Positions 1,873-29,015 of a stretch of 37,063 bases of DNA are shown one piece after another; the stretch's first letter is position 1, and every line of letters starts with the position of its first letter. The notes beneath the pieces are model-generated. The model searched no databases. It was given only the letters and a program-made list of their open reading frames with translations, and was not told where the DNA came from. The position numbers and the translations under genes are program-made. The stretch is from NCBI RefSeq assembly GCF_004010195.1, contig NC_057756.1, positions 4,594,413 to 4,631,475 of the forward strand, in the 5' to 3' direction. Source of the DNA: Chiloscyllium plagiosum. Lineage: Eukaryota.

Positions 1873-2820
1873 TCAAAGTTTGGGTGAAGATTTGTAGCTC
1901 GGGTGCTCGTTGTTGTGGTTCTGTTCGCCGAGCTGGAAATTTTTGTTGCAAACGTTTCGTCTCCTGTCTAGGTGACATCCTCAGTGCTTGGGAGACTCCT
2001 GTGAAGCGCTTCTGTGGTGTTTCCTCCGGCATTTATACTGGCTTGTCCCTGCCGCTTCTGGTTGTCAGTTTCAGCTGTCCGCTGCAGTGGCCGGTGTATT
2101 GGGTCCAGGTCGATGTGTTTGTTGATGGAGTTTGTAGATGAGTGCCATGCTTCTAGGAATTCTCTGGCTGTTCTTTGTTTGGCTTGCCCTATCATGGTAG
2201 TGTTGTCCCAGTCGAATTCAAGTTGCTTGTCTTCTGCGTGTGTGGCTACTAAGGATAGCTAGTCACGGCGTTTCGTGGCTAGGACTTATAACAGCACACA
2301 AACCAACAGCCACCCTCAGACAACAACTCACCAGAACGAAGGACCCGATACCCAGCGTGAGCAAAACTAATGTAATGTACAAAATCCCCTGCAAGGACTG
2401 CACAAAACACAATATAGGACAAACAGGAAGACAGCTAACGATCCGCATCCATGAACATTAACTAGCCACGAAACTCCACGACCAGCTATCCTTAGTAGCC
2501 ACACACGCAGAAGACAAGCAACTTGAATTCGACTGGGACAACACTACCATTATAGGGCAAGCCAAACAAAGAACAGCCAGGGAATTCCTAGAAGCATGGC
2601 ACTCATCCACAAACTTCATCAACAAACACATCGACCTGGACTCAATATACCGGCCACTACAGCGGATAGCTGAAACTGACAAACGGAAGCGGCAGGGACA
2701 GGGGAGGAAACACCACAGAAGCGCTTCACAGGAGGCTGTCACACTGAGGATGTCACCTAGACAGGGGACGAAACGTTTGCAACAAAAATTTTCAGCTCGG
2801 CAAACAGAACCACAGCAACC
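1873..2820. mobile_element. Penelope-like element 3' fragment with inverted duplication (minus 1873-2280, plus 2281-2820)
   Basis: GIY-YIG region VMYKIPCKDCTKHNIGQTGRQLTIRIHEH; arms are reverse complements; 9-bp TSD TTTCCTAGT at 1864-1872 and 2821-2829. Confidence 0.92.
2744..2780 (+). ncRNA. Minimal hammerhead ribozyme-like motif in Penelope terminal repeat (mirror copy on minus strand at 1948-1987)
   Basis: CUGAGGA - stem II GUCACCU/AGGGGAC - GAAAC GUU. Confidence 0.6.
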
Positions 2821-3039
2821 TTTCCTAGTGTTTATATTTCGTATTTATATGTCGTGTCCAATAATCAATACCTATTATAATTCTTTGTGTAACCATGTGC
2901 AATCACGACTAAACTTTTAATATATATTTGCTGCATTACATATGTAATTTTCAATATTGTAATCATGCTGGCACACGGCCTTTAGTTTTATTAATCTTTC
3001 AGTTACTTTTGATAAGGACTGATGTCATATGTTGGTTTA

Positions 3040-3552
3040 CTAACAATTTTCATTTTTTGTTTCTTCCTGTCACATTATATGTCTTGTACTAATAATCATT
3101 TGGCTTTATGTAGCACTTTGATTTGACATGTCTTCTCAAATTTGATGCATGCACTGAAAATTTTGCGTTAAATCCTCTCTACAACCAGTTATGCAGTGCT
3201 AACAAAACTGGCCCCAGTGTCTTTCAAGTGGAATCAACCCTTCAGAGTAGACACCATTTTCTCCACAACGTTTTCAACAACAAGAGTCAAATCTTCCATT
3301 TCAGTTTTGGCGAGGCATTGATTGTTGTTGTCTAGTTATTTGATGCAATTTTATTTCAAGTGTCAGAACTAATAAAGTATAGATTATCACCTTTGGAGTT
3401 CTCCATTCTTATTTGGAGATGAGATGTTACTTTATGTGATATCACAGCAGCTGCATGGACATGAAGACCGCAACCATTTTTCACACGATAATTTCTTCTC
3501 CAGTCTGTGCAGAGAACGCAAACCTCAGTAGACTGATACAGAACAGCCAATT
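3040..3552 (-). pseudogene. Decayed exon containing a TNFR1-like death domain with internal deletion (core 3154-3299)
   Basis: Acceptor aattttag| at 3553; MEDLTLVVENV / WRKWCLL*RVDST*KTLGPVLLAL / ITGCREDLTQNFQ across two frameshifts; 3' boundary approximate. Confidence 0.65.
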
Positions 3553-3737
3553 CTAAAATTTAGTGAGCTAAAATAGTCAGCTCTGTCATACAGCACTTAA
3601 ATAAATGTCCAGTTACTATACGAGCATAACAAACAATGTTCACTATTTGATAATTGCGAATCAGGAAACTGGGACAATTACATCTGTTCCAGAAACATAA
3701 TGCACCGAATTTGATGAAATTGTACCTGTACATGTAC

Positions 3738-4194
3738 CTGCGTTTCATTTATAGCATTTCTTCTGTGTCCATCTCGGTTGATGTTTCTTCTTTAGACTTA
3801 TGAATGCAATGGGCTACATCCTTGTCACTGTGTTCACCTTCACCATATTTCTCATAAAATTCGAATATCACTCCCTGCGCAACAATTTTACCAAACTGGA
3901 TATGTGATGTGTTATCACTACGCAAAGCAGATTTCAGTTTCCCTTATTTGACTTCCTTGACTCCAAGTATTCCGGCAAACAGTTGCTTGCTTCATCCCTT
4001 GCGGATTAATTCAGATAAAACAGATTTTTTTTTTGCATTCGGTTCAAGACAATGTGGATATCATTCGGTAAGCAGGCATTTACTGCTTATCACAAAAAGT
4101 CAAATATGCCAGCTTTAGTTTCTCTTTTGTATAAATTGTTAATGCTTATTCGGTTGCCTTATGTTGGATTTAATTCACTTTCACCCCTTAATTT
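3738..4194 (-). pseudogene. Decayed CARD-like exon 3 (457 nt)
   Basis: Acceptor tgttattag| at 4195, donor CAG|GTACAT at 3737; frameshifted pieces LPNDIHIVLNRMQKKNL / SELIRKG*SKQLFAGILGVKEVK*GKLKSALRSDNTSHIQFGKIVAQ; size and donor context match exon 30692-31143. Confidence 0.5.
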
Positions 4195-4299
4195 CTAATA
4201 ACAGAATGTCCCATGGGAGGATTTGAACTTATTTTGAAATGTCAAAAACGATAACATCGTTTTTGTTTGTTGTTAGAGTATGGGAATATTTCCAAAATG

Positions 4300-4674
4300 A
4301 TATCCACTTAAAAATCATTCATGTTATAATGTTGTGATTATTATGGCTGTTTTCGGTTGTTGTTTTTATTTCGCTTGAACAGTTCGTGTGGTGTTCCTTT
4401 CTATGATGCCCACAAGAATTCCACATTTCTCATGAACAAACAGTCCAAACACTTTAATTTTCGAAAATGACGTTGACAGATTTTTTTAATGCAACTTGCT
4501 TCGTTTTGGCTAACGTGTGTTTGATTAGTCTCTGTTATCCAACAGGAATTAGATTGTCTTTTGCAAATATCGTGCCCAGTGTAGTGACAGAAATTTAATA
4601 GAATATAGTGACATGCAAAAGTAGTTCAGCTGTGCACTTTATTTCAATTCAAAATAAAGGTTTTGCAAAGTCCT
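4300..4674 (-). pseudogene. Decayed CARD-like exon 2
   Basis: Acceptor taatttag| at 4675; EDFAKPLF*IEIKCTAELLLHVTIFY*ISVTTLGTIFAKDNLIPVG*QRLIKHTLAKTKQVALKKSVNVIFEN*...RKEH/ELFKR (frameshift); donor not identified. Confidence 0.4.
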
Positions 4675-6289
4675 CTAAATTACTGTTTAAGTCACAGCGG
4701 CTTCGTTCATTGAATACTCAATTGCAAAATCATAGCGAGAAATATTTAAGAATAATTGTTATGTTGTCTTTGTTGATTCACAGCCATCACTCTTTTGAAT
4801 ATTATTTCTGATTGATACCAATTAATAAAGCACATAACATGAAAAATAGGCTATAATATTTGAAGTGGCTTTCAATGGAAAGCATCGACAGAAAGGTGCA
4901 ATGATATGATTTTTAGGTAAACTGTCATTCCTTAGTTTCCAGGAGAATTGTTTGAAAATGTTTACCGTTCAGAACACAAACGGGTGCTGATCAGAATTTA
5001 TGAAAACAGGTTTCAGTTATCAAATGCTGCATGATGACGTTTTGAGTCATTGCTTTATCTATGGTGAGTTTGGTTAAGTATATGACAACAAAAGTTTGCA
5101 AATTTAATACCCGCCTAAGTTACTGAAGTATTTTTAATGCACTCATTATCGATAAGAAATGTCACCGTCAGAATGAACTACTAGTAATCCATGAAAATTC
5201 AACCTAAAAGTTTAAATGAATTACTCAAAGCGATTGATATATGTTCTGATTTTTTAAAAATTTGCAATGCCATCCTTTTGGAATATCCAATTGAACATGA
5301 CTTTGGAAGTACATAAATTGTCAAAATCAAATGTAAAATGATTGTAATTAATCCATACATTGATCTAATGTGTTCACCCCGTTCCCTGTTCCCTATTCCC
5401 TGAACGCAATGAATATGAAACATGTTGAACGAGCAGAGATTCTTGAAAATATGTTATGCCCCTCGTAATATTCTTTAAGAATGTCATAAGCTCTGTTCAC
5501 GACAGGAGGCACACAACTACTTCATAATAGAGCATTTACCAGATGCAGAAAGCAATGGTTCTATGAAGATTTCGAAATTAGAAGCTATATATGGTTGAGA
5601 CATATTATACTGAGACATGTTATACTTACTCCTCTAATGTGTAGAATCAGTCTCAACTGTCTCTTTAATATGTCGTTCCCCTAAATTAAATCCAATCCTT
5701 TTCGATTTGAAGTAATCAATGCATATTCCTTCTATTTTCTCCTCAGTAAGTGTGTATCATACATGTCACAAAAGTTCGATGAAATAAATTGATTTTTTTT
5801 TGTATGTGATGCCTAAATTTAAAAGGCGTGCATGGTCTCTGAGGTTTTTGATCTGGAGAAACCTGCAAGGTACTGTGTCCAGAATCTATGCCGTTTTGAA
5901 CCGTTTAGCAAATTATAAAAGTGCTATTCTTAGATATGTGTGTTTTATTTTCAAATTTAATTGAGTGTACATGGCAACTTGTGTGGTTTGCAGTTTGCAA
6001 AAGGGTGACTTAATGGGCACGAACTGATCAACTTGATTCGTTTGCTTTGATCATCAAATCTTGCTGAAGCATTATACCAAATTTAAAAGAGGATTATGCG
6101 CTTTAATTTGGCAAACGAAAGGTAACTGTTGATGCTCAGTAATCTCTCGATTGCGAACAGTCAAACTTCAGTGTTACCATGACCTGCTGGTCATTGAAAA
6201 GTGTGATAATTGAAAACTAAAAATCTATAACGAAACATCTGAATCAATGGATCAATTGTGAAAAAATACATAAATATATTCTGCACTAC

Positions 6290-6645
6290 CACTTGTCAGA
6301 TATATTTGTAGATGAATTATGTATCCTAGAAGTCATATGATGGAGAACTGTCTTAGCAATTAAAGATAAAATACTGATGCTTTATATTTCCTTTCTTTCA
6401 TTAATTAAAATAAAATTGGTATGTGGAGCAAGTTGTCGCAATCTTTATTTGCCACATTCTCCTTTGCAGAGACTTGTCCTAATTCAGACTGTTAGAGTGC
6501 ATCTCAGCAAAGGTTTGTCAAACAAATGTTGCCTCAAGCAGCTTCAGTGACAAGGCATCAATCTTAAGGAGTCCAAACAGTGCATTCTTCTCATTCCACA
6601 TGATATGGTATTTCTTTTTGAAATTTTCCGTCCAAGCTAATCTCC
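6290..6645 (-). pseudogene. CARD-like exon 1; open for 42 codons, then TGA at 6520-6518 and further lesions
   Basis: Strong acceptor ttttcttcccattttcag| at 6646; RLAWTENFKKKYHIMWNEKNALFGLLKIDALSLKLLEATFV*QTFAEMHSNSLN*DK shows CARD helix 1-4 hydrophobic spacing by eye; donor at 6289 tentative. Confidence 0.6.
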
Positions 6646-6761
6646 CTGAAAATGGGAAGAAAATAATAGTTTGCCAGCAAGTTTTTTTTTGTTATAATGC
6701 AATCTAGTGAGTCTGTATTAGTGATTAATCTTCAAATTTCACTCTGGTGTCATCACGTCAC

Positions 6762-6863
6762 GTGAAGGTTCGTTAATGAAAGTTGGGTTATCATAGCTTG
6801 GACCAGTTGTAGTAGCAGAAGCTGTCTCTCTTTTTCTTCGAGATCTTGCTAACCTTTCGCAAA
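6762..6863 (-). CDS. Gene A juxtamembrane cytoplasmic exon (102 nt, phase 1-1) CERLARSRRKRETASATTTGPSYDNPTFINEPS
   Basis: Acceptor tttcatttcatgcag| at 6864; donor C|GTGACG at 6761 (moderate); open frame, basic cluster, YDNPTF motif; in frame with the TM exon and the next exon. Confidence 0.7.
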
Positions 6864-7051
6864 CTGCATGAAATGAAATAGATATCATCTTCTTAAAATG
6901 CAAACATATTCACTTGCATATCGAAACATAAGCACTGACATGCAAATATCTTAGGTTCATTCAAGACATGCAATTTCTCCCTTTAACATTTACAATCGCA
7001 GTATACGTTTGTTTGAAATATTTCGTGTCAGTTAAATTCATTGTAACTCAC

Positions 7052-7178
7052 CAAATTCGTGTTTGTGAAAACAATAAATAAACAAAGGGAGAAACAATAC
7101 CAACGACCGTGCAGTGGTCATGATACTTAGGCAGAGAATTCCAGAGCTGGAACTATGACGCAGTGGCCAGGAGCTCAT
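7052..7178 (-). CDS. Candidate exon ending at a consensus donor; open frame MSSWPLRHSSSSGILCLSIMTTARSLVLFLPLFIYCFHKHEF; 5' boundary uncertain
   Basis: Donor TTG|GTGAGT at 7051, phase 1, in frame with the exon at 6863; ATGs at 7178 and 7121. The hydrophobic reading may only reflect a T-rich tract. Confidence 0.4.
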
Positions 7179-7366
7179 TGTCCCCTCGTTGCAAATGGAG
7201 ATTTAAAATATATATATATTAAATTAATCTGGAATAAATCGTCTAGTATCATTATTGTCAGCCGTGAAACGCTTGGTTTCTTCAAATAAAACATCTATTT
7301 CACTAAAAATGTTAACAAAAGCAACGTTACTTTCCTTGGCAGGGTTCTAGGCAACCATTAATTAGT

Positions 7367-7476
7367 GAGGTAATTAATTCCTGATTCCTGATGAAGGGCT
7401 TTTGCCCGAAACCTCGATTTTGCTGCTCGTCGGATGCTGCCTGAATTGCTGTGCTCTTCCAGCACCACTGATCCAG
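7367..7476 (+). repeat. Short Penelope-derived insertion with hammerhead-like core
   Basis: CTGATGA(7388-7394) a GGGC tttt GCCC GAAAC; 14-bp TSD AACCATTAATTAGT at 7353-7366 and 7477-7490. Confidence 0.85.
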
Positions 7477-7923
7477 AACCATTAATTAGTCTCAATTCTA
7501 AATTTGACATACGACAGTCTTGCCACAATTTAACTGCAGAGACCCATCAGTAATGCAAACACATTATACAGAATAAAGTTGCTGGCAGGCTTACGAACAT
7601 GAAATACCAAGTTATAAATTATTTAGAGCGAAAAACTAGAGCTCTGAATAAACTTAGATAAAATTATCATTGTCATTATCGTAAAATAACTTTTAAAATA
7701 ATAATATTAAAGAAAGACATGCACATTTAAGCACATGTGGAAATAACGAAAATGGTGAGGAGCATCCTAAACCTAAAGCCTGATCTGGAAAATAACACAA
7801 GTCTGCGCCAAGCATGTTTCCTAACACTGTTACTTTATTCACTGAACCAACGAATAAGCAAAAATCTGTTCATATCAGCCTGAAACATCTTAAGCAAAAG
7901 GACATTACATATCTCTGGAGCGA

Positions 7924-8569
7924 TGTGATGATGATGATCCTTTAAAAAAAGATTGTGCTGTCCTCGTTTCTTTTTACAGGGTCTGTAAATGCAAGACAAT
8001 TTGGGAGGCCCAGATTTAATGGGTGTAATTTAATTATAGCTAACCAATACTGCCGTAGGCAGAAAACATGCAGTTGGTAAAAAAGATCTTGCACGATGAA
8101 GGGAAAGTGATCGGTTCTCCCAGCTCAGTTTCTATTTGGTTTGGTCTTTGTTTTGAAAGCACTCTGGCGGTTTATGGCTGTCAGCCAGTTGTGAAGCTGC
8201 TGGACAAAAGAAGCAGGTCCATGTTGATCCTCCCTCCCTCCGACGACTCTCCTGTTAGAATCTGTGTTGGATGTTTCATTTTTGTGCAAAGGGATGTTTA
8301 TGGGGATTGTTGCAGGTAATTGGAACAATATCATTAAGTTGAGATAATTTATTGGTTTTTTTGGACAGATTAAGTTATTCCATGTTTTGTTCCCTTTTGT
8401 TTGTGTTTCGCTGGGTAATCGCACAAATAAATTTTGTTTTGTTTAAAACTGTGGTTGGGCCAGCTACATCACTCCTGAATTATCCACTGTGCACCTGCTA
8501 AGACAAACAAATGAGTGTCTGGGATGCATTCTAGAAATGTTTTGAGGGAATCTGGCCTTGTTCATAACA
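7924..8569 (+). mobile_element. Probable solo LTR
   Basis: TGTGATGA...TCATAACA imperfect inverted ends, AATAAA near 8426, about 650 bp; no clear TSD. Confidence 0.6.
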
Positions 8570-9478
8570 ATTGGTTCCCAAATATCCACGATTTCGCCAC
8601 ATGAGACGTTTCTGTTTCTGTTCCCGAAAATACAAATCAAAAGCTCACTTCCACTCTTTCATAGGTTACATAGGCAGCATAGGCAAATATTCTTACACAT
8701 TTTATCAATGAGTTCGACTGACATTCATCGAAAGTCCAGGGTGTACGACTGAATTCAGTCAATGTTTCATCATTGGACGAAGGTCTCATTTATAATCAAA
8801 TCCAGTGAGCTCTCCTTGTACTGATTACCACGCATATGCCTGACTCCTTATCTGACACAAGAATTACTAAAGTGTATCATGTGCATCTTACCAGTGCACT
8901 GTAGAACTACAACCTTATTCTCGACTTTTGTCAGTGTTAATGTTGTTATTATTATTATGATTACCTTAGCAATAAAAGCAGTAGCAGTAGTACTATTGGT
9001 CGGAGTAACACTAGTATCGTATTGAAATTGGGGTCGTTTATCTCAGTTGGCTGAACAGCTGGTTAGGCTGGATTCAATACTTTGCCTTGCTTTGAGGTTA
9101 TATTGAAGGACTCTCCTTCTCAGTCTTTCCCCAAGAAGCGGTAACTTTAAGCCACAGCCAGCTATCTGTCGCCCTAATGCAAGAGCAACCCAGTGACCTG
9201 TTAAGGCTATGATAATATCTTGATGATTTTAAAGTTCCATCTCAAAATCAGTGTGTTACATGTTTTTTTCCAATTTCATGTACCGTCTTTTTTCAGTTAT
9301 GTAGTCCAACGTTTGGGCAATGGAATCTCATTGGTTTGATTACCGCTTCTAGATGCAATACTGGTGTGATACATCTTTACATTATTCAGGATGACTGACG
9401 ACGGGAATTCCACCACTCTTATTGTAAAATACATAGAACATTTATTGCAATTTAAAAGATTGTATTCAAATTTATTAC

Positions 9479-9504
9479 CAAAAACAGACTCCACAGTATT
9501 TCTG
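9479..9504 (-). pseudogene. Gene A candidate mini-exon (23/26 nt, CAGCAG acceptor)
   Basis: ttcctttcag|cagaaatactgtggagtctgtttttg|gtaata; similar in size, acceptor type and sequence to the mini-exon at 33273-33297. Confidence 0.4.
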
Positions 9505-9621
9505 CTGAAAGGAACCATATCACTTCCTTTTCCTCCGCAGAGTAAGTGCTGTTATCAATGTTTGATGGGATCTTTCTTTTGCTCCCAACAAACTGCATGA
9601 ACCTACGGTGCTCTACACTAC

Positions 9622-9665
9622 CTCCACTTTCTAAACGTCGACTTTACTATGCAAATTTGTGAATT
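9622..9665 (-). CDS. Gene A candidate small cytoplasmic exon (44 nt), QFTNLHSKVDV* with TAG at 9633-9631
   Basis: Good acceptor tgttttctcattcag| at 9666; weak donor gtagtg at 9621; if used after the TM exon it ends a 146-aa protein. Confidence 0.4.
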
Positions 9666-9829
9666 CTGAATGAGAAAACAGCCATGGTCTGGTTTCAGAA
9701 GAAAAATCATTTCGCAACGAAATACAAATGGGAATATCTAGCCAAATAGTATATTGTCAGAAGCACTTGACGATGGAAAACGATGTTTTTATGGTATTAA
9801 TGAAATAAGTCAAAAAAGTTCATACTTAC

Positions 9830-9925
9830 GTTTGTCACATTGCACCCAAATGCAAAGTGATAAGACACATAAAACGAACAGTAGTGCAAGAGCGCCAAAT
9901 GCAATTCCAATATAACTTCCAATTC
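9830..9925 (-). CDS. Gene A exon: transmembrane helix (96 nt, phase 1-1)
   Basis: Acceptor ttttatag| at 9926, donor C|GTAAGT at 9829; translation (G)IGSYIGIAFGALALLFVLCVLSLCIWVQCDK. Confidence 0.9.
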
Positions 9926-10469
9926 CTATAAAATAATATAAGAATGAAACCAAATCTGATCTTAACTTTTGAAAAACTAAAAGCACATTAATTCATATCT
10001 TAGGTGTTATAGTCCACAATAGTGAAATGCATTTGATTTTTTTTTTGCGATGAAAGAAATAATTCCAAAGTGCAACTGAATAGTATAGGTGTTCTAAAAG
10101 CAATAGACACAGATGTAGATGCATTTAATACAGATGTTCATTCGTAAAATGTTGTTGAAGACAAATGACATGGCATTTGTAAATTGCAAAACTGAGAATT
10201 GGGGGTGGTCGTGAAGCAGAGTAGGAAAATCTGCTGGTTCACGTTACAAGAAGCCCAGAAAGGGCGGTTGTCATTGTTGGAGGTAAGCAGATACCTGGAT
10301 GTCAATACAAACTTTCACAGGGTCGTGCAACATCATAAGTTGCTTATGGAATACTCTTGCCTCCAAAATATAGTGAGTGATCTGTATAACTGTTGATGAT
10401 TCTGCAACTTTGAGCAACGTGCGTCTGTTCTCGAGTACGCCAGCAGTTGGAGTCGAACTCTCGCAAGCA

Positions 10470-15448: not shown

Positions 15449-15703
15449 CACGTCCAATGTAGCAATATGAATATGAATACCGATGCCCAGCTGTGCATTT
15501 GTAAATAGTATTCCATTCATCCACAAACTCGTGCTTTGAGATATTTATCGTGAACCGCGGGGTGTTGGATGTCTCCCTGTAGAGGTTATTTGGCCCAGTC
15601 CAAGTGAGAGTAGGGAAGGGGAGACCACCACGATAGTAGCAATCCAAAATAACAAAGTCTTCAGAATAGGACGAAATGCATGATAAGTACGAATTCGATC
15701 TAG
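15449..15703 (-). CDS. Gene A exon: single Ig-like domain with 4 Cys (255 nt, phase 1-1)
   Basis: Acceptor ctttcag| at 15704, donor G|GTGAGT at 15448. Open frame RSNSYLSCISSYSEDFVILDCYYRGGLPFPTLTWTGPNNLYRETSNTPRFTINISKHEFVDEWNTIYKCTAGHRYSYSYCYIGR with Ig-type C..GG.P.P.L.W and Y.C...H motifs; N-glycosylation sequon NIS. Confidence 0.9.
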
Positions 15704-17182
15704 CTGAAAGGTAAGCTAAAATGAAATTGTGAATGTTTATGTCAGTAATTCTGCTTGAGATTTGCAATTAACCGTTAAGAAAGATTTAGTCTAATTATAG
15801 AACATATAGAACTTATTATGTAACAGCACAGTACAGTCCTTTCAATCCTCAATTTTGTGCCGAGCTGTGGAACTAATCTGAAGGCTATCAGATCAACACT
15901 ATTCCATGTGCGCCTCCAATGACTATTTAAATGCCCTTACATTTGGCGAGTCTACTATCGTTGCAGGCAGTGTTCACTCCCCAATTCTTTCTCAGTGAAG
16001 AAACTACCTCTGGCATCTGTCGAATATCGCTCACACTTCAATTTAAAGCTATGTCCCCTGGTGCTAGCCATCACCATCTGAGGAAAAGGGCTCTCACGGC
16101 CCAATCTGTCTAACCCTCTGATTATCTTATATGTTTCAATTAAATCGCCTCTCAACCTTCTTCTCTCTAACGAAAATAGCCTCAAGTCCCACAGCCTTTC
16201 CTCTCAAGACCTTCCCTCCATATCAGGCAACATCCGTGTCAATCTCCTCTGAACCCTTTTTAAAACTTCCGCATGTTTCCTAGAATGTGGTGACCAGAAC
16301 TGTATGCAATACTCCAAATGTGGCCAGAGTTTTACACGGCTGCAGCATGATTTCTTGGTTCCAAACTCAATCGATCTAACTATGAAAAACTAACAGACCG
16401 TATGCCTTCTTAACAAACTTATCAACTTGGGTGGCAACGTTCAATGATCCATGTAGCTGGACACCGAGATGTCTCTGCTCATCTATGCTTCCAAGAATCT
16501 TACCATTAGCCCAGTACTCCGCATTCCTGTTACTCCTTCGAACGTGAATCACCTGACACTTTTCTGCATTAAACTCCATTTGCCATCTCTCAGCCCAGTT
16601 CTGCAGCTTATCTATGTCTCTCTGTAACCTACAACATTCGGCCACGATCCACAGCACTACTAATCTTAATGTCATCTGCAAATTTAAAAACCCATCCTTC
16701 TATGCTCTCATCCAGATTGTTGTGGTTCTGTTCGCCGAGCTGGAAGTTTTTGATGCAAACGTTTCATCCCCTGGCTAGGCGACATCATCAGTGCTTGGGC
16801 GCCTCCTGCGAAGCGTTTCTTTGATGTTTCCTCCAGTGTTTATAATGGTCTGTCCCTGCCGCTTCCGGTTGTCAGTTTCAGCTGTCCGCTGTAGTGGTTG
16901 GTATATTGGGTCCAGGTCGATGTGTTTGTTGATGGAGTTTGTGGATGAATGCCATGCCTCTAGGAATTCCCTGGCTGTTCTTTATCTGGCTTGCCCTATG
17001 ATAGTAGTGTTGTCCCAGTCGAATTCATGTTGCTTGTTGTCTGCGTGTGTGGCTACTAAGGATAGCTGGTCGTGTCGTTTCGGGGCTAGTTGATGTTCAT
17101 GTATGCGGATTGTTAGCTGTCTTCCTGTTTGTCCTATATAGTGTTTTGTGCAGTCCTTGCATGGCATTTTGTACACTACATT

Positions 17183-17493
17183 NNNNNNNNNNNNNNNNNN
17201 NNNNNNNNNNNNNNNNNNNNNNNNNNNNNNNNNNNNNNNNNNNNNNNNNNNNNNNNNNNNNNNNNNNNNNNNNNNNNNNNNNNNNNNNNNNNNNNNNNNN
17301 NNNNNNNNNNNNNNNNNNNNNNNNNNNNNNNNNNNNNNNNNNNNNNNNNNNNNNNNNNNNNNNNNNNNNNNNNNNNNNNNNNNNNNNNNNNNNNNNNNNN
17401 NNNNNNNNNNNNNNNNNNNNNNNNNNNNNNNNNNNNNNNNNNNNNNNNNNNNNNNNNNNNNNNNNNNNNNNNNNNNNNNNNNNNNNNNNNNNN
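17183..17493. other. Assembly gap (N run)
   Basis: Run of n. Confidence 1.
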
Positions 17494-18152
17494 TCTGGCC
17501 CAGAGTTTGGGTTGAATTTGTGGTAGGGCTGTTTGTTCTAACCTTTGCATAACTGCCTCTGCTATGAGTCCAGAGATGGGTGAGGCCATGGGTGTTCCGT
17601 TGATTTGTTCGTATATGTGGTTGTTGAATGTGAAGTGTGTTGTGAGGCACAAGTCCAGTAGTTTGAGTATGCCGTCTTTGTTGATAGGTTCAGCGTCCTG
17701 TTTTCTGTTCTGTATGTCCAGTAGGTTGGCTATTGTTTCTCTGGCTAGGGTTTTGTCAATCGAAGTGAACAGTGCCGTCACGTCGAATGATATCATGGTT
17801 TCTTCTTTGTCTATGTGTATATTTCTGATGATGTCCAAGAATTCCTGTGTTGATTGTATAGAGTGTTTGGATCCGCTGACCAGGTGTTTCAGTTTCTGTT
17901 GTAGTTCTTTGGCCAGTTTGTATGATGGTGTCCCTGGCAGTGACACTATGGGTCTGAGTGGGATGTCTGGTTTGTGTACTTTAGGTAATCCATAGAATCT
18001 GGGGGTGTTGTTGCTTTCCGGTTTCATTCTTTGTAGGTCAGCTCTGGTTATCTGTCCGATTTTTGTAGCTTCCTAAGTGTGTTATTTATCCTATTGGTGA
18101 GTTGTGGTGTGGGGTCAAATTCCTTCATTTGGTGTTAGCAGGAGGCTCCCAA

Positions 18153-20966: not shown

Positions 20967-21021
20967 ATGTAAATTGAGCCAGGTAGAGAAGACCAACCAA
21001 AGTGATGCTTCTCCGTGCCAT
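20967..21021 (-). CDS. Gene A exon: signal peptide MARRSITLVGLLYLAQFT (55 nt, ends phase 1)
   Basis: ATG at 21021-21019; basic N-region (RR) then hydrophobic core; donor T|GTAAGA at 20966-20961; phase joins the Ig exon in frame (..FT-S-RSNSY..). Confidence 0.75.
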
Positions 21022-22099: not shown

Positions 22100-25000
22100 A
22101 AAATGCAGATGATCCTATATTTATCCTTAGCACGTGCTGGTCTTGCTATTTGAAATGGAGAATTTAGCTGCTTGAGCTCTGTAGTGCAATGGTCGTGCAC
22201 CTACTCAATAATAGGCGTAGCTTTCTGGATACTGTTGGAAGGGGGCAACCATCAGGGGAAAGCCGTAGCGGCCAGTTCTGGTGCAAAACCTGGCTCTGTG
22301 CGTTAGAAGGTAAACGGGGAGAAAAGGAGAGCAATAGTGGTAGGAGATTCAATCTTAAGAGGAATGGACAGGAGATTCTGTGGTTGCGAGCGAAACTCGC
22401 AAAACATATGTTGCCTCCCGGATGCTAGGGTAAGTAATGTCTCTGATTATATGTACAAGATTCTTAAGGGGAAGGGAAAGCAGCCAGAATTCGTTTTTCA
22501 CATCAGTACTAATGACATAGGTAAGGAAAGTGAGGAGGACCTGAAAAGAGAACATAGAAAATTAGTTTTGAAGCTAGAAGGCAAGCCGAACAGAGTAGTG
22601 ATCTCAGGATTGCTATCAGTGCCACGTGCTACTGAGACTAGGAATAGAGAGCGTGTGCAGCCGAACGCGTGGTTACAGGGCAGGTTTAGGAGGAAGGGCT
22701 TCAGGTATGTGGATCATTGGGACATCTTCTGGGAAAGCATGGACTTGTATAAAAAGGACGGTTTGCACCTGCACTGGAGCAGTTCTGATATCCTGGGCGG
22801 GAGGTTTGCGAGAGCTCATTAGGAGGATTTAAATTAGATTGGCATAGGGAGGAGGTTGTTGGAACTTGAGGTTCAGATCAGATGGCGGAGTAGATAGTGA
22901 ACAGCCAGATACAGCGTGTAGAAATTTTATAAGATGGGATAGGCACATGATAGGGAGGGATTCAATCTGTGTGATAGGTTCAATTGTATCTATTTTAATG
23001 TAAAAAGGAATCCGAGTGACGAATTCAGAGCATGAATTAATGCATGGAACAATGTGGTTGTGGCCATTACGGAGACTTGCATATAACAGGGGCTGGAATG
23101 GTTGTTGGATGTTCCAGGGTTTAGGTGTTTCTGAAGGAATGGGAACAAGGTAAAAGAAGTGGAGGAGTGGCATTGCTAATCGGTGATAGTATCACAGTTG
23201 CAGAAAGGGAGACCGTTGAACAGGATTTGTCCACAGAGTCAGTTAGGGTGGAAGTCAGAAGCAGGAAAGTAGAGGTCACTTTATTGGTAGTTTTCTACTG
23301 ACCCCACAATAACAACACAGATGGGGAGGAGCAAACTGGGAGGCAGATTTTAGAAACATATAGATGGTAAAGGTTTGCGGACATGGCTTTCTTTAACTTA
23401 CCTAAAATAGAGTGCACGTTCTTAGGTCAAATAGTTTAAAAAGAACAGTTTTTCTCAGGTATGTCTAAGAGGGGTTCCTGACACAATATGTAAATAGGCT
23501 GACTAGAGCAGAAGTCACATTGGCAACGAACAATGCCAGGTGTCAGATCTCTCGGGTGAGAGAATTTCGGTGGCAGGAATCAAAACTGGCTTTGATATAG
23601 CTAATCAAACGTTTGCTATACTCATCGAGAGGGTTATGAGCAGACAGTATGGGAAAATATTTACTTGGAGGAGGGGGAATTACATTGCTATTAGGCAGAA
23701 ATTCGGGAGCCTAAATTAGGAACAGATGTTCTCAGTGAAATGCACAGCAGAACTGTGGAAGTTGTTTACTAAGCACCTGCTGTTGGTGATGGAGCGATTT
23801 GATCCACTGAGGCAAGGAAGGGATGGTCGGTTGAAAGAACCTTAGGTGGAAAATCTCGTCAATAGGTGGAAGGAAGATTACTTCAGGTTAACGAGGCAAG
23901 GATCAGATATGACTTAAGAAGATGACAAGGTAGCAAGGAAGAAACTGAAGAATGGACGTGGAGAGCTCGAAAAGAGCATGAAAAGCTTTAGTGGGTGTAA
24001 TTAAGCAAAACCGTAACGCATTCCACATTTATATGAGGAAAACGAGGATGCCCATAGTGAGTGTATGGCCGATCAGAGATGGCGGAGGGGGTTTTTCCTG
24101 GTGTTGGACGAGTTCAGGGATGTCATTATTGAATATGTTGCTTCAGTTTTAACTATTTCGAGGGTCCATGATGTTTATGAAAACAGCATAAAGCAGACTG
24201 ATAGGATCGACCCGGTTCATGTTAAGAGGGCAGGTGTACTGAAGTGTTTAAAAACTTGAAGATGGATACATCCCATTGGCCAGATGGAATATATCATGAG
24301 TTATTATGAGAAGCAAGAGAAGACATTGTTGCACTTTCGGCGACAATTTTTGAGTCCTCACTGTCCACTGGAGTAATGTCACATGATTAGACGGTTGCAA
24401 ATGTTATTCCTTTGTTCATGAACGGGAAGATGGAAAATCTTGGGAATTAAAGACCAGTCAATTTCACATCTGTGGTTGGAAAAGTGTCGGAAAGGATTCT
24501 GAGAGACAGAATTTATAATTACTTGGAAAACCAGTTTGATTAGAAATAGTCAGCATGACTTTGTGAGGGGCAGGTCATGTCTCACAAACCTTACTGAATT
24601 ATTTGAGAATGTGACAAATCACATTAGTGAAGGTAGAGCAGTCGATGTAGTGTACATGGACAATAGCAAGTCATTTTATACGGTTCCAAATGGAAGGGTC
24701 AATCAGAAAATATGGAGGTCTAACACAAGGGAAAACTCCCTGTATGGCTACAGAATTGCCTGGCCCACAGAAGACAAAGGGTAGTGGTAGATAGAAAGTA
24801 TTCAGCCTAGAGTTCAGTGAACAGTGGTGTTCCACTGTGATCGGTTCTTGGGCCTCAGCTTCTTGTGATATTTATAAATGACTTGAATGAGAAAGTGGAA
24901 GGGTGTGTTGGTACGTTTGGCGATGACACGAAGGTTGGTGGAGCAGTGGATAGTGTGGAGTGGTGTTGCGGGTAGCAATGAGACATTGACTGGATGCAGA

Positions 25001-26025
25001 ACTGGCTGATAAGTCGCAGATGCAATGCAAACAAGAAAAGCGTTAAGTCATACACTTTGGAATGTCGAACTTGATTGCAGAATACAGGGTTAAATCAGGA
25101 GTCTTTTCAGTGTTTAGGAATAGAGGGATCTTGGGATCCATGTCCACAGATCCCTTAAAGTTACCATCCAGCTTGATAAGGTCGTCACAAAGAGGTATGG
25201 TGTGTTGGCTTTCATTAGCAGAGGGATTGAGTTTAAGAGCCACGAGGTTATGCTGCAGCTCTGTAGCGTCCTGTTTGGACCACATTTGAAATAATGTATT
25301 CAGGTCTGTCCACCTCATCATAGGAAAGATGTGGAAGCTTTAGAGATTTAGTACAATGCTGTCTGCACTGGACAGCAAGTCTTACGAAGAATTGTTGAGG
25401 GAGCTAGGGGTTTTCTCATTGAAGAGAAGAAGGGTAGAGGTGACTTGATAGAGGTGTAAAGATGTTGAGAGGCATAGATAAAGTGGATGGACAGAGACTT
25501 GTTTTCCGATGGTGGAATTGTCAATCACGAAAGGGCATAATCTTAAGTTATTTTGAGAAGGGTTTCGGGGAGATGTGTTGCTGGAAAAGCGCAGCAGGTC
25601 AGGCAGCATCTAGGGAACAGGAGAATCGACGTTTCGGGCATTAGCCCTTCTTCAGGATTCCTGAAGAAGGGCTAATGCCCGAAACGTTGATTCTCCTGTT
25701 CCCTAGATGCTGCCTGACCTGCTGCGCTTTTCCAGCAACACATTTCCATCTCTGATCTCCAGCATCTGCAGACATCACTTTCTCCTTTCGGGGAGATGTC
25801 ACAAGTAGGTTCTTTACTCAAAGAGTGATGGTGCGTGGAATGTACTGCCAGCGGTGGTAATGGAGTCTGATAAATTAGGGACATCCAAGTGACTCTTCGA
25901 TAGTCACATGCAAGTTAGTGCAATGCAGAGTATTTATGTTGTTCCGATCTTGGAGTGGAATAGAAGGCAGGTACAAAATCAAGGACCGAAGGGCCTGTAC
26001 AATGCTGTACTGTTCTATGTTCTAA
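22100..26025 (+). mobile_element. Near full-length decayed CR1 LINE (ORF1 SGNH esterase, ORF2 endonuclease-RT)
   Basis: VGDSILRG..CCLPDARV..HISTNDI..DGLHL (ORF1); VAITET, RPVNFTSVVGK, SQHDFVRGRSCLTNL, FGDDTK (ORF2); tail ctgtactgttctatgttcta. Confidence 0.92.
25577..25785. repeat. Young palindromic Penelope-derived insertion with two opposed hammerhead-like cores, inside CR1
   Basis: Near-perfect inverted arms centred at about 25658; CTGAAGA a GGGC taat GCCC GAAAC on both strands; 14-bp TSD TTTCGGGGAGATGT at 25563-25576 and 25786-25799. Confidence 0.92.
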
Positions 26026-26379
26026 ATCTGAGCCACGGGTGTCTTTATTCAAACCACATTTGCTCCATACCTAACAATATTTGTGTTTTCTCTAGGTTGC
26101 GGAAATTCTGATTAGGTTTCACAGAAGAATCAAAATCTTGAAGTTAATTAAAATATATTTGCATAAGAGCCCAAAAGAATCACAATTACGGTTGGGCATT
26201 GGGAAAATAAGGAACAGGAATTTATTTCAGGCGAAATGCAAAGTGAACCGCGTCTGTATGGTCTGAAGCTACACGTAATATCAACTAATCAGTTCTGTTA
26301 AACTGTGTTAACTGAATATCAGATGTTCTGCATAATAGGCTGCTCGTGCAATACTGCCTATTGTGCAGCTGCAATTGGG

Positions 26380-26660
26380 TGGTGGCGTGGTGCCTCGTTC
26401 AGTGGTTGCCAATGCTGCCTTATTGCAACAGCCTCCAGGTTTTGAATCCATCCTTGGGCGACTACCTGTTTGGAGTTTGCACATTCTTCCACTGACTGTG
26501 TTTCGTCCCACAGGACGAAGAAAAGGGTTAGATGGATTAGCCATGGGAAATACAGGGTCCCAGGAAGGGCGTGGGTCCAGTTGGGAATGGTCTTCGGAGC
26601 GGCAGTGTGGACTCAATTGGACAAAGGGCCTGCCATCAAACTGTACGCATGTATATTTCT
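26380..26660 (+). mobile_element. HE1-like SINE (diverged)
   Basis: tRNA-like head gttcagtggttgccaatgctgcct..tttgaatcc, ggagtttgcacattct core. Confidence 0.75.
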
Positions 26661-27149
26661 AAATGCCAGAAATTGTTGCAACATGGCGTTCAAATCCTTC
26701 TTTAAGGTAACATTGATGCGTGGAAGAAAATAGAGAACAGACACTCAAGAAAGCGTGAAAACGAAAGCACACACACATTAACAATAATTTTATTCTGACG
26801 GAGGAGTCTTATCTAAATGTGCAATAAAGTAAAACTACCAACTTTTAAAATTTCATTTCAATCAGAAAAGCAAAGCATTGACCACATTGGTTACTTGTGG
26901 GCGATGATCAAAAATTTACAATTAACATATACTTGAAAGTGGACATTCTTAACGAGCTGCAGAGATAACAAGGCGCCTGGAAAGAGTTGCTAATACAGAG
27001 GGCATCTCGCTGACAGCCAAAATTAAATGTTCATGTGCCGTGTATTCTCTGAATGGATGGGATGTTGTTAAGGTCTGGAAAAATCGTCTAAATCCCCAAC
27101 AATGAGAAAAGAATAGTACAGCTTATAAACTGAAAATTCCGTTCATCAT

Positions 27150-29015
27150 GCTGGATGGAAAAGTAAGCTTCAAGGCAAGGGTGTAATTGATATGTGGAGC
27201 TTGTTCAAGGAGCAACTATTGAGTGTACTTGATAAGTATGTGTCCGTCAGGCAGGGAGGAAAGGGTCGTGTGAGGGAGCCGTGGTTTAATAAGGAATTGG
27301 AATCCCTTGTTAAATGGAAGAGGGCGGCCTATGTAAAGATGAGGCGTGAAGGTTCAATTGGGGCGATTGAGAGTTATAAGGTAGCCAGGAAGGACCTGAA
27401 GAGAGAGCTAACAGCAGCAAGGAGGGGACATGACTGGTCCTTAGTCGGTAGGATTAGGAAAAACCCTAAGGCTTTCTATAGGTATGTCAGGAATAAAAGA
27501 ATGACTAGGGTAGGAATAGGTCCAGTCAAGGATAGTAGGGGGAAGTTGTGTGTGGAGGCTGAAGAGATTGGGAAGACACTGAATGAATACTTTTCGTCAG
27601 TAACAGGAACAGGACATTGTTGCCGATGTGAATACTGAGTCACAATTAAGTAGAATGGAAGGCTTTGAGGTATGTAGAGAAGAGGTGTTGGAAATTCTGG
27701 AAAGGGTGAAAATAGATAAGTCCCCTGGGCCTGATAGCATTTATCCTAGGATTCTCTGGGAAGCAAGGGAGGAGATCGCAGAGCCATTGGCCTTGATTTT
27801 TATGTCCTCATTGTCTACAGGAGTAGTGCCAGAAGACTGGAGGATAGCAAATGTGGTTCCCTTGTTCAAGAAGGGGAGTAGGGATAACCCTAGTAACTAT
27901 AGACCGGTGAGTCTCACTTCTGTTGTGGGCAAAATCTTACAGAGAATTGTAAGGGATAGGATTTATGAACATCTGGATAGGAATAATGTGATCAAGGATA
28001 GTCAGCATGGTTTTGTGAAGGGCAAGTCGTGCCTCACAAACCTTATTGAATTCTTTGAAAAGGTGACGAAGGAGGTTGATGAGGGGAAAGCGGTAGATGT
28101 GGTATAAATGGATNNNNNNNNNNNNNNNNNNNNNNNNNNNNNNNNNNNNNNNNNNNNNNNNNNNNNNNNNNNNNNNNNNNNNNNNNNNNNNNNNNNNNNN
28201 NNNNNNNNNNNNNNNNNNNNNNNNNNNNNNNNNNNNNNNNNNNNNNNNNNNNNNNNNNNNNNNNNNNNNNNNNNNNNNNNNNNNNNNNNNNNNNNNNNNN
28301 NNNNNNNNNNNNNNNNNNNNNNNNNNNNNNNNNNNNNNNNNNNNNNNNNNNNNNNNNNNNNNNNNNNNNNNNNNNNNNNNNNNNNNNNNNNNNNNNNNNN
28401 NNNNNNNNNNNNNNNNNNNNNNNNNNNNNNNNNNNNNNNNNNNNNNNNNNNNNNNNNNNNNNNNNNNNNNNNNNNNNNNNNNNNNNNNNNNNNNNNNNNN
28501 NNNNNNNNNNNNNNNNNNNNNNNNNNNNNNNNNNNNNNNNNNNNNNNNNNNNNNNNNNNNNNNNNNNNNNNNNNNNNNNNNNNNNNNNNNNNNNNNNNNN
28601 NNNNNNNNNNNNNNNNNNNNNNNNNNNNNNNNNNNNNNNNNNNNNNNNNNNNNNNNNNNNNNNNNNNNNNNNNNNNNNNNNNNNNNNNNNNNNNNNNNNN
28701 NNNNNNNNNNNNNNNNNNNNNNNNNNNNNNNNNNNNNNNNNNNNNNNNNNNNNNNNNNNNNNNNNNNNNNNNNNNNNNNNNNNNNNNNNNNNNNNNNNNN
28801 NNNNNNNNNNNNNNNNNNNNNNNNNNNNNNNNNNNNNNNNNNNNNNNNNNNNNNNNNNNNNNNNNNNNNNNNNNNNNNNNNNNNNNNNNNNNNNNNNNNN
28901 NNNNNNNNNNNNNNNNNNNNNNNNNNNTTAGGTGGGCTTGGATCGGCGCAACATCGAGGGCCGAAGGGCCTGTACTGCGCTGTATTCTTCTATGTTCTAT
29001 GTTCTATGTTCTATG
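27150..29015 (+). mobile_element. Relatively young 5'-truncated CR1 LINE spanning an N gap
   Basis: KSPGPDSIYPRIL, NYRPVSLTSVVGK, SQHGFVKGKSCLTNL; (TTCTATG)4 tail ending near 29015. Confidence 0.95.
28114..28927. other. Assembly gap (N run)
   Basis: Run of n. Confidence 1.

Follow-up and report, generated by a model that had tools for sequence, protein, structure and literature searches.

What does a short, broken reading frame downstream of an immunoglobulin (Ig)-type receptor gene in Chiloscyllium plagiosum represent, and was it ever part of that receptor? The question concerns one corner of the 37,063-nucleotide stretch of DNA analysed here (the window). An earlier note had singled out three peptide pieces on the minus strand, at 3299-3267, 3265-3194 and 3192-3154, as the remnant of a TNFR1-like death domain (DD), and we read all three exactly as claimed (Table 1). 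They lie in three different frames, one base being left over at 3266 and another at 3193, and amount to 48 codons with two stops, as against ~80-90 residues in one frame for the six-helix bundle of a complete DD. The first piece, going by its pattern, presumably corresponds to helix 1. The pieces are low copy, with no contig pile-up at 80% likeness; they are non-coding today and without present function.

Table 1. DD-like pieces, upstream cysteine-like pieces and parts of the neighbouring single-Ig transmembrane (Ig-TM) gene, in window positions
Feature	Position	Strand	Remarks
DD-like piece 1	3267..3299	-	11 codons, MEDLTLVVENV; VVENV at 3281; no Pfam family
DD-like piece 2	3194..3265	-	24 codons, WRKWCLL*RVDST*KTLGPVLLAL; two TGA stops; no Pfam/PDB match
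DD-like piece 3	3154..3192	-	13 codons, ITGCREDLTQNFQ; GC.ED at 3186; no Pfam match
Putative TNFR cysteine-rich-domain-like pieces	3623..3790	-	three frames; C-x2-stop-x2-G-T at 3756, C-x3-S-F at 3682, H-C-x2-C-S at 3638
Putative 3' UTR of Ig-TM gene	4079..6738	-	~2.66 kb; X9 contig; ATTAAA at 4174, AGTAAA at 4084
Ig-TM last coding exon	6739..6863	-	ends VMTPE-stop; stop at 6741-6739
Ig-TM exon 3 (transmembrane)	9830..9925	-	spliced joint 9830 to 6863 in 3/4 runs
Ig-TM exon 2 (single Ig-like domain)	15449..15715	-	Pfam Ig_3 E 0.055, below cut-off
Ig-TM exon 1 coding part (signal peptide)	20967..21021	-	tblastn of P0001; GT donor

The likeness to the DDs of TNFRSF1A (TNFR1) and TNFRSF25 (DR3), which is one of short patterns only, consists of the order VVENV, LG.VL, GC.ED and of the spacing of helices 4-5. 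VVENV and GC.ED occur once each in the window, and LG.VL twice, at 3217 and once on the plus strand. The three motifs do follow one another in the expected order, on the same strand and over no more than 110 bases. The gap of four letters that had been claimed between LG.VL and GC.ED is not there; VL is separated from GC by 16 bases (5 codons plus 1 base). A tryptophan at 3256 opens the pattern W-x8-T-x-x2-L-x3-L, in register with LG.VL at 3217 and unique in the window, though picked post hoc. This is the helix 4-5 spacing general to death domains, and GC.ED after LG.VL is typical of TNFR1 and DR3.

How often would such a series arise by chance? Had the ordered set of motifs been specified before the sequence was seen, 1.5e-9 occurrences per window would be expected, a figure that does not establish a signal because the motifs were chosen after the sequence had been read. 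A frameshift-aware local match restricted to the 13 letters that match in the motifs scores 33. When random 80-residue queries (n = 120) were run against the same window, with frameshifts and free deletion allowed, the median score was 43 and 120/120 queries reached at least 33. Under this null, then, the ordered motifs do no better than chance. Wildcards were scored 0 in the motif match, so the value of 33 is conservative and understates the real match. The two chance estimates bracket the answer. Both bear on the reading that the resemblance is coincidence, with three short motifs reached in ordinary AT-rich intergenic DNA once two stops, two frameshifts and a deletion of free length are permitted. 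The random-query result argues for coincidence, but the null is blind to conservative matches and to family-level weighting, both of which it leaves out, and the W...T...L...L register is found nowhere else in the window.

Searches for relatives of the pieces came back empty. The check by death-domain profile that the earlier note had proposed gave no match to the Death family of Pfam, nor to any TNFR family, at E up to 10, for three frames of 3100-3599, three frames of 3600-4099, the single pieces, or pieces 2 and 3 read through with X. A caveat is that HMMER filters remove most matches above ~0.1, and the power of such searches is low on broken pieces of 11-37 residues. DD-like and cysteine-like pieces matched no death-domain or TNFR chain in the PDB at E up to 10. 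Two PDB matches at E 0.15 proved to be unrelated bacterial membrane proteins. When a 268-residue frame was read through its stops and compared by phmmer with 1.84 billion representatives, 0 matches were found. A word-index protein search yielded no candidate for pieces 2 and 3, and for the frame containing piece 1 and two cysteine pieces it yielded 64 candidates, none of them at E up to 10. Atlas searches gave nothing usable, the best result (0.85) being without a family. Nor did a TNFR1, DR3, Fas, FADD, RIPK1 or p75 protein come up in the PDB or protein-collection searches. Descent from a TNFR1/DR3-type DD is plausible by pattern and was detected by no profile or database search. The empty Pfam, PDB and protein-collection searches count towards coincidence, but with little weight given their power on pieces of this size. 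The pieces differ from the DDs of TNFR1 and DR3 in that roughly half of the domain would be absent, the frame is broken by two stops and shifted twice, and there is no Pfam or PDB match. Because neither a profile match nor a complete domain was found, we do not file them as a member of that group. Death-domain ancestry is neither shown nor refuted, and we put it at about even.

If the pieces are the fossil of a TNF receptor, then cysteine-rich pieces are expected upstream on the same strand. Candidate TNFR-like cysteine pieces were spotted by eye 330-500 bases upstream of the DD-like pieces. The chain C-x2-C/stop-x2-G-T followed by C-x2-C-S is unique in the window (3756, 3635); it arose in 5/12000 simulated 1-kb bins, or in 0/12000 when the third motif was included, with motifs that were in both cases chosen post hoc. 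Human TNFR1 residue numbers are listed in Table 2 of PMC4251160. With C30 anchored at 3756, 8/22 of the positions H22-C73 given in that table (C30, T37, C55, S59, F60, H69, C70 and C73) carry the human residue at the human spacing to within one base, by an alignment made by hand with two frame changes. The remaining 14/22 landmarks are without a match, and for C33, C43 and C52 cysteines are present on codons one base off. The same table places human intron 2 between C33 and T37, and the name of an intronic variant, c.194-14, is confirmed in PMC13491080. Provided that the cysteine pieces are genuine, the window runs continuously through the human intron 2 position.

One test of the cysteine pieces was fixed from outside the window, namely the published cysteine spacing. 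Taken alone, this spacing is matched as well by 41-66/72 window bins, depending on which of five scoring settings is used, and by 59-91 percent of 4999 simulated bins. Cysteine spacing, being at background, was therefore dropped as support for a TNF receptor. The TNFR_c6 family of Pfam has no match in the cysteine-like region. A transmembrane remnant at ~3595-3510 was also dropped (26/47 control stretches are as hydrophobic), as was a decayed long open reading frame at 3943-3359 (51/300 simulations are as stop-poor). Since the cysteine spacing, the transmembrane stretch and the stop-poor frame are all ordinary, the upstream lead is unconfirmed. The background result of the spacing test again favours coincidence, while the uniqueness of the upstream cysteine chain in the window speaks against it. 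The spacing result also bears on whether the pieces could stem from some other death-domain protein, of the adaptor or kinase type, instead of a TNF receptor. The failure of the cysteine evidence in the one externally fixed test fits such a source, as does the generality of W-x8-T-x-x2-L-x3-L among death domains, but GC.ED after LG.VL would point to TNFR1 and DR3, and we regard this origin as improbable.

The gene beside the pieces encodes a shark single-Ig transmembrane protein and is intact. Its four exons join into a single open frame of 180 residues, all introns being GT-AG, and the product is identical at 172/180 residues to chiPu_0011377 (P0001). Exon 2 can begin after either of two in-frame AGs, at 15715 or, 12 bases further in, at 15703, which give 180 or 176 residues. 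With the Ig exon as query, 6 of 12 candidate proteins matched; they come from C. punctatum, Cetorhinus, Scyliorhinus and Rhincodon, and the gene is already annotated in sharks, where it is uncharacterised. Its orthologs P0001, P0002 (LOC144671664), P0003 (scyTo_0010051) and P0004 (LOC125487965 X3), from Chiloscyllium, Cetorhinus, Scyliorhinus and Rhincodon, respectively, all terminate in TPE or TPK and are without a death domain. The precomputed Death family is assigned to 0/6 relatives, and a Pfam search of P0001 and of the Rhincodon isoforms X2 (P0005) and X1 (P0006) of LOC125487965 detects no death domain. A PDB profile search with the gene returned only 3 VHH chains, at E about 0.5. A Y-x-N-P motif in the short tail of the protein, which we take to be of the endocytosis or PTB/SH2-binding type, is kept in 4/4 orthologs (YDNP, YENP, an HYNP variant and YDNP). 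In P0005 and P0006 the Ig domain is followed by a V-set domain (Pfam E 1.9e-15 in P0006), and the C-terminus of P0005 carries two tyrosine motifs, presumably of the ITIM type. The V-set and other extra parts of these two proteins have no significant tblastn match in the window; the longer forms possibly arise by read-through into an adjacent gene. Upstream of the Ig gene, on the minus strand at ~34200-33780, lies a frameshifted stretch that has few stops and faintly resembles V-type Ig sequence, with no Pfam match in 3 frames.

Four runs were aligned to 2850-10050, three of them as assembled contigs (X9, X13 and X20) and one as raw RNA reads (X21). The joint from 9830 to 6863, whose CT..AC ends are those of a minus-strand intron, is present in all three contig sets, including X9, which had been labelled 'DNA?' by guess yet contains the spliced form. 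In X9 a single contig of 2663 bases covers 6740-4079 at a depth of 1746; the depth then drops to 2-7, and the bins below 4055 hold short pieces at 1.3-5.3. In X13 nothing is covered below 4778, and in X20 nothing below 4537. The X21 reads have near-zero depth on the Ig-TM UTR and are thus uninformative on the pieces. Among the splice joints listed, none enters 3998 or the DD-like pieces, so that in this respect too the pieces differ from the DDs of TNFR1 and DR3: they are not joined into a mature transcript. The Ig-TM 3' end probably lies near 4079, as judged from contigs, which cannot show RNA ends or levels. The DD-like pieces would then begin 780 bases beyond this end; they are 3,440 bases from the Ig-TM stop. 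Within the last Ig-TM intron, at 7380-7480, there is a short, very abundant repeat with a contig depth of about 45,000 in X9.

These data bear directly on the proposal of the earlier note that a TNFR1/DR3-type DD exon had been shuffled onto the Ig receptor and later inactivated. Under this proposal the exon was once spliced to the receptor, giving an Ig-TM-DD death receptor whose tail was later lost. The pieces do lie on the same strand as the Ig gene and downstream of it, and an AG resembling an acceptor (3998) and a GT (about 6760) are present. However, the last exon spliced to 3997 in its own phase runs into a stop at 3921, and none of the listed joints reaches the pieces. The stop is common to the Chiloscyllium, Cetorhinus, Scyliorhinus and Rhincodon X3 proteins, and therefore any DD tail would predate the split of these four genera. 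No Death family is precomputed in the six relatives, and the longer Rhincodon isoforms enter a V-set domain instead. Because its frame is intact and the orthologs share its end, the Ig receptor is not inactivated and is without a death-fold tail. The model is largely refuted, and we consider it very unlikely that such a receptor existed. It is just as unlikely, on evidence from sharks, that cartilaginous fishes once had at this locus an ancestral gene that combined an Ig ectodomain, a transmembrane segment and a TNFR1/DR3-type DD of which the pieces are the last trace. A literature search found no account combining an Ig domain, a death domain and exon shuffling in sharks, another on processed pseudogenes of death-domain TNF receptors in fish brought up nothing on the topic, and the accessible portions of PMC6001812 and PMC6795676 contain nothing on this locus. 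Whichever reading holds, it is well supported that the pieces lie outside today's Ig receptor protein. As they fall outside an intact Ig gene that ends without them, they can be no more than the fragment of a dead gene, and the likeness may be accidental.

The window also contains mobile-element debris. Retroelement pieces with RT-like and GIY-YIG-like text, presumably Penelope-like, lie at ~1870-2830 and 16760-18070 (no Pfam family in two frames searched), and near 2270-2290 two retroelement copies meet in opposite orientation. LINE remnants, which we take to be of the CR1/L2 type, extend over ~22300-28100 on the plus strand, with RVT_1 at 27604-28104 (E 1.3e-9) and a GDSL-lipase-like ORF1 piece at 22307-22819 on the same strand (E 7.7e-5). 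A broken plus-strand frame at ~150-480, without a Pfam match, presumably resembles the gag/SCAN-like start of a Gypsy retrotransposon.

Taken together, the reading that we favour, at a little less than an even chance, is that of a separate TNFR1/DR3-type death-receptor sequence, situated past the Ig-TM 3' end, of which the pieces are decayed remains. Coincidence is nearly as likely. In the favoured reading, the possible cysteine pieces (3790-3623) and the DD pieces (3299-3154), which share a strand and span about 640 bases, may represent an old intronless copy that would have landed downstream of the intact Ig-TM gene. Deletions, the two stops and two frameshifts that interrupt the DD pieces, and a neighbouring retroelement would have left this copy inert. 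Like decayed or processed pseudogene fragments, the pieces have a broken frame, low copy number and an adjacent retroelement; as in processed pseudogenes, there would be no intron at the human TNFR1 intron 2 point, provided that the cysteine pieces are real. Unlike a processed pseudogene, they have no parent that we found, and neither a poly(A) tail nor a target-site duplication is evident in 2700-4300, both of which decay with age. Death-receptor ancestry would also imply a large internal deletion in the domain, put at roughly 35 codons in the earlier note, and the layout demands that more large stretches were lost between cysteine and DD pieces, which argues against this reading.

What the locus would mean differs between the readings. 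If true, the acquisition of a death domain by an Ig receptor would be a case of domain shuffling between two immune receptor families; this is disfavoured because of the conserved stop and the transcripts. If instead the pieces are the decayed leftover of a separate death-receptor sequence, they would simply be another dead gene fragment, useful only as a marker for the loss or duplication of a shark death receptor.
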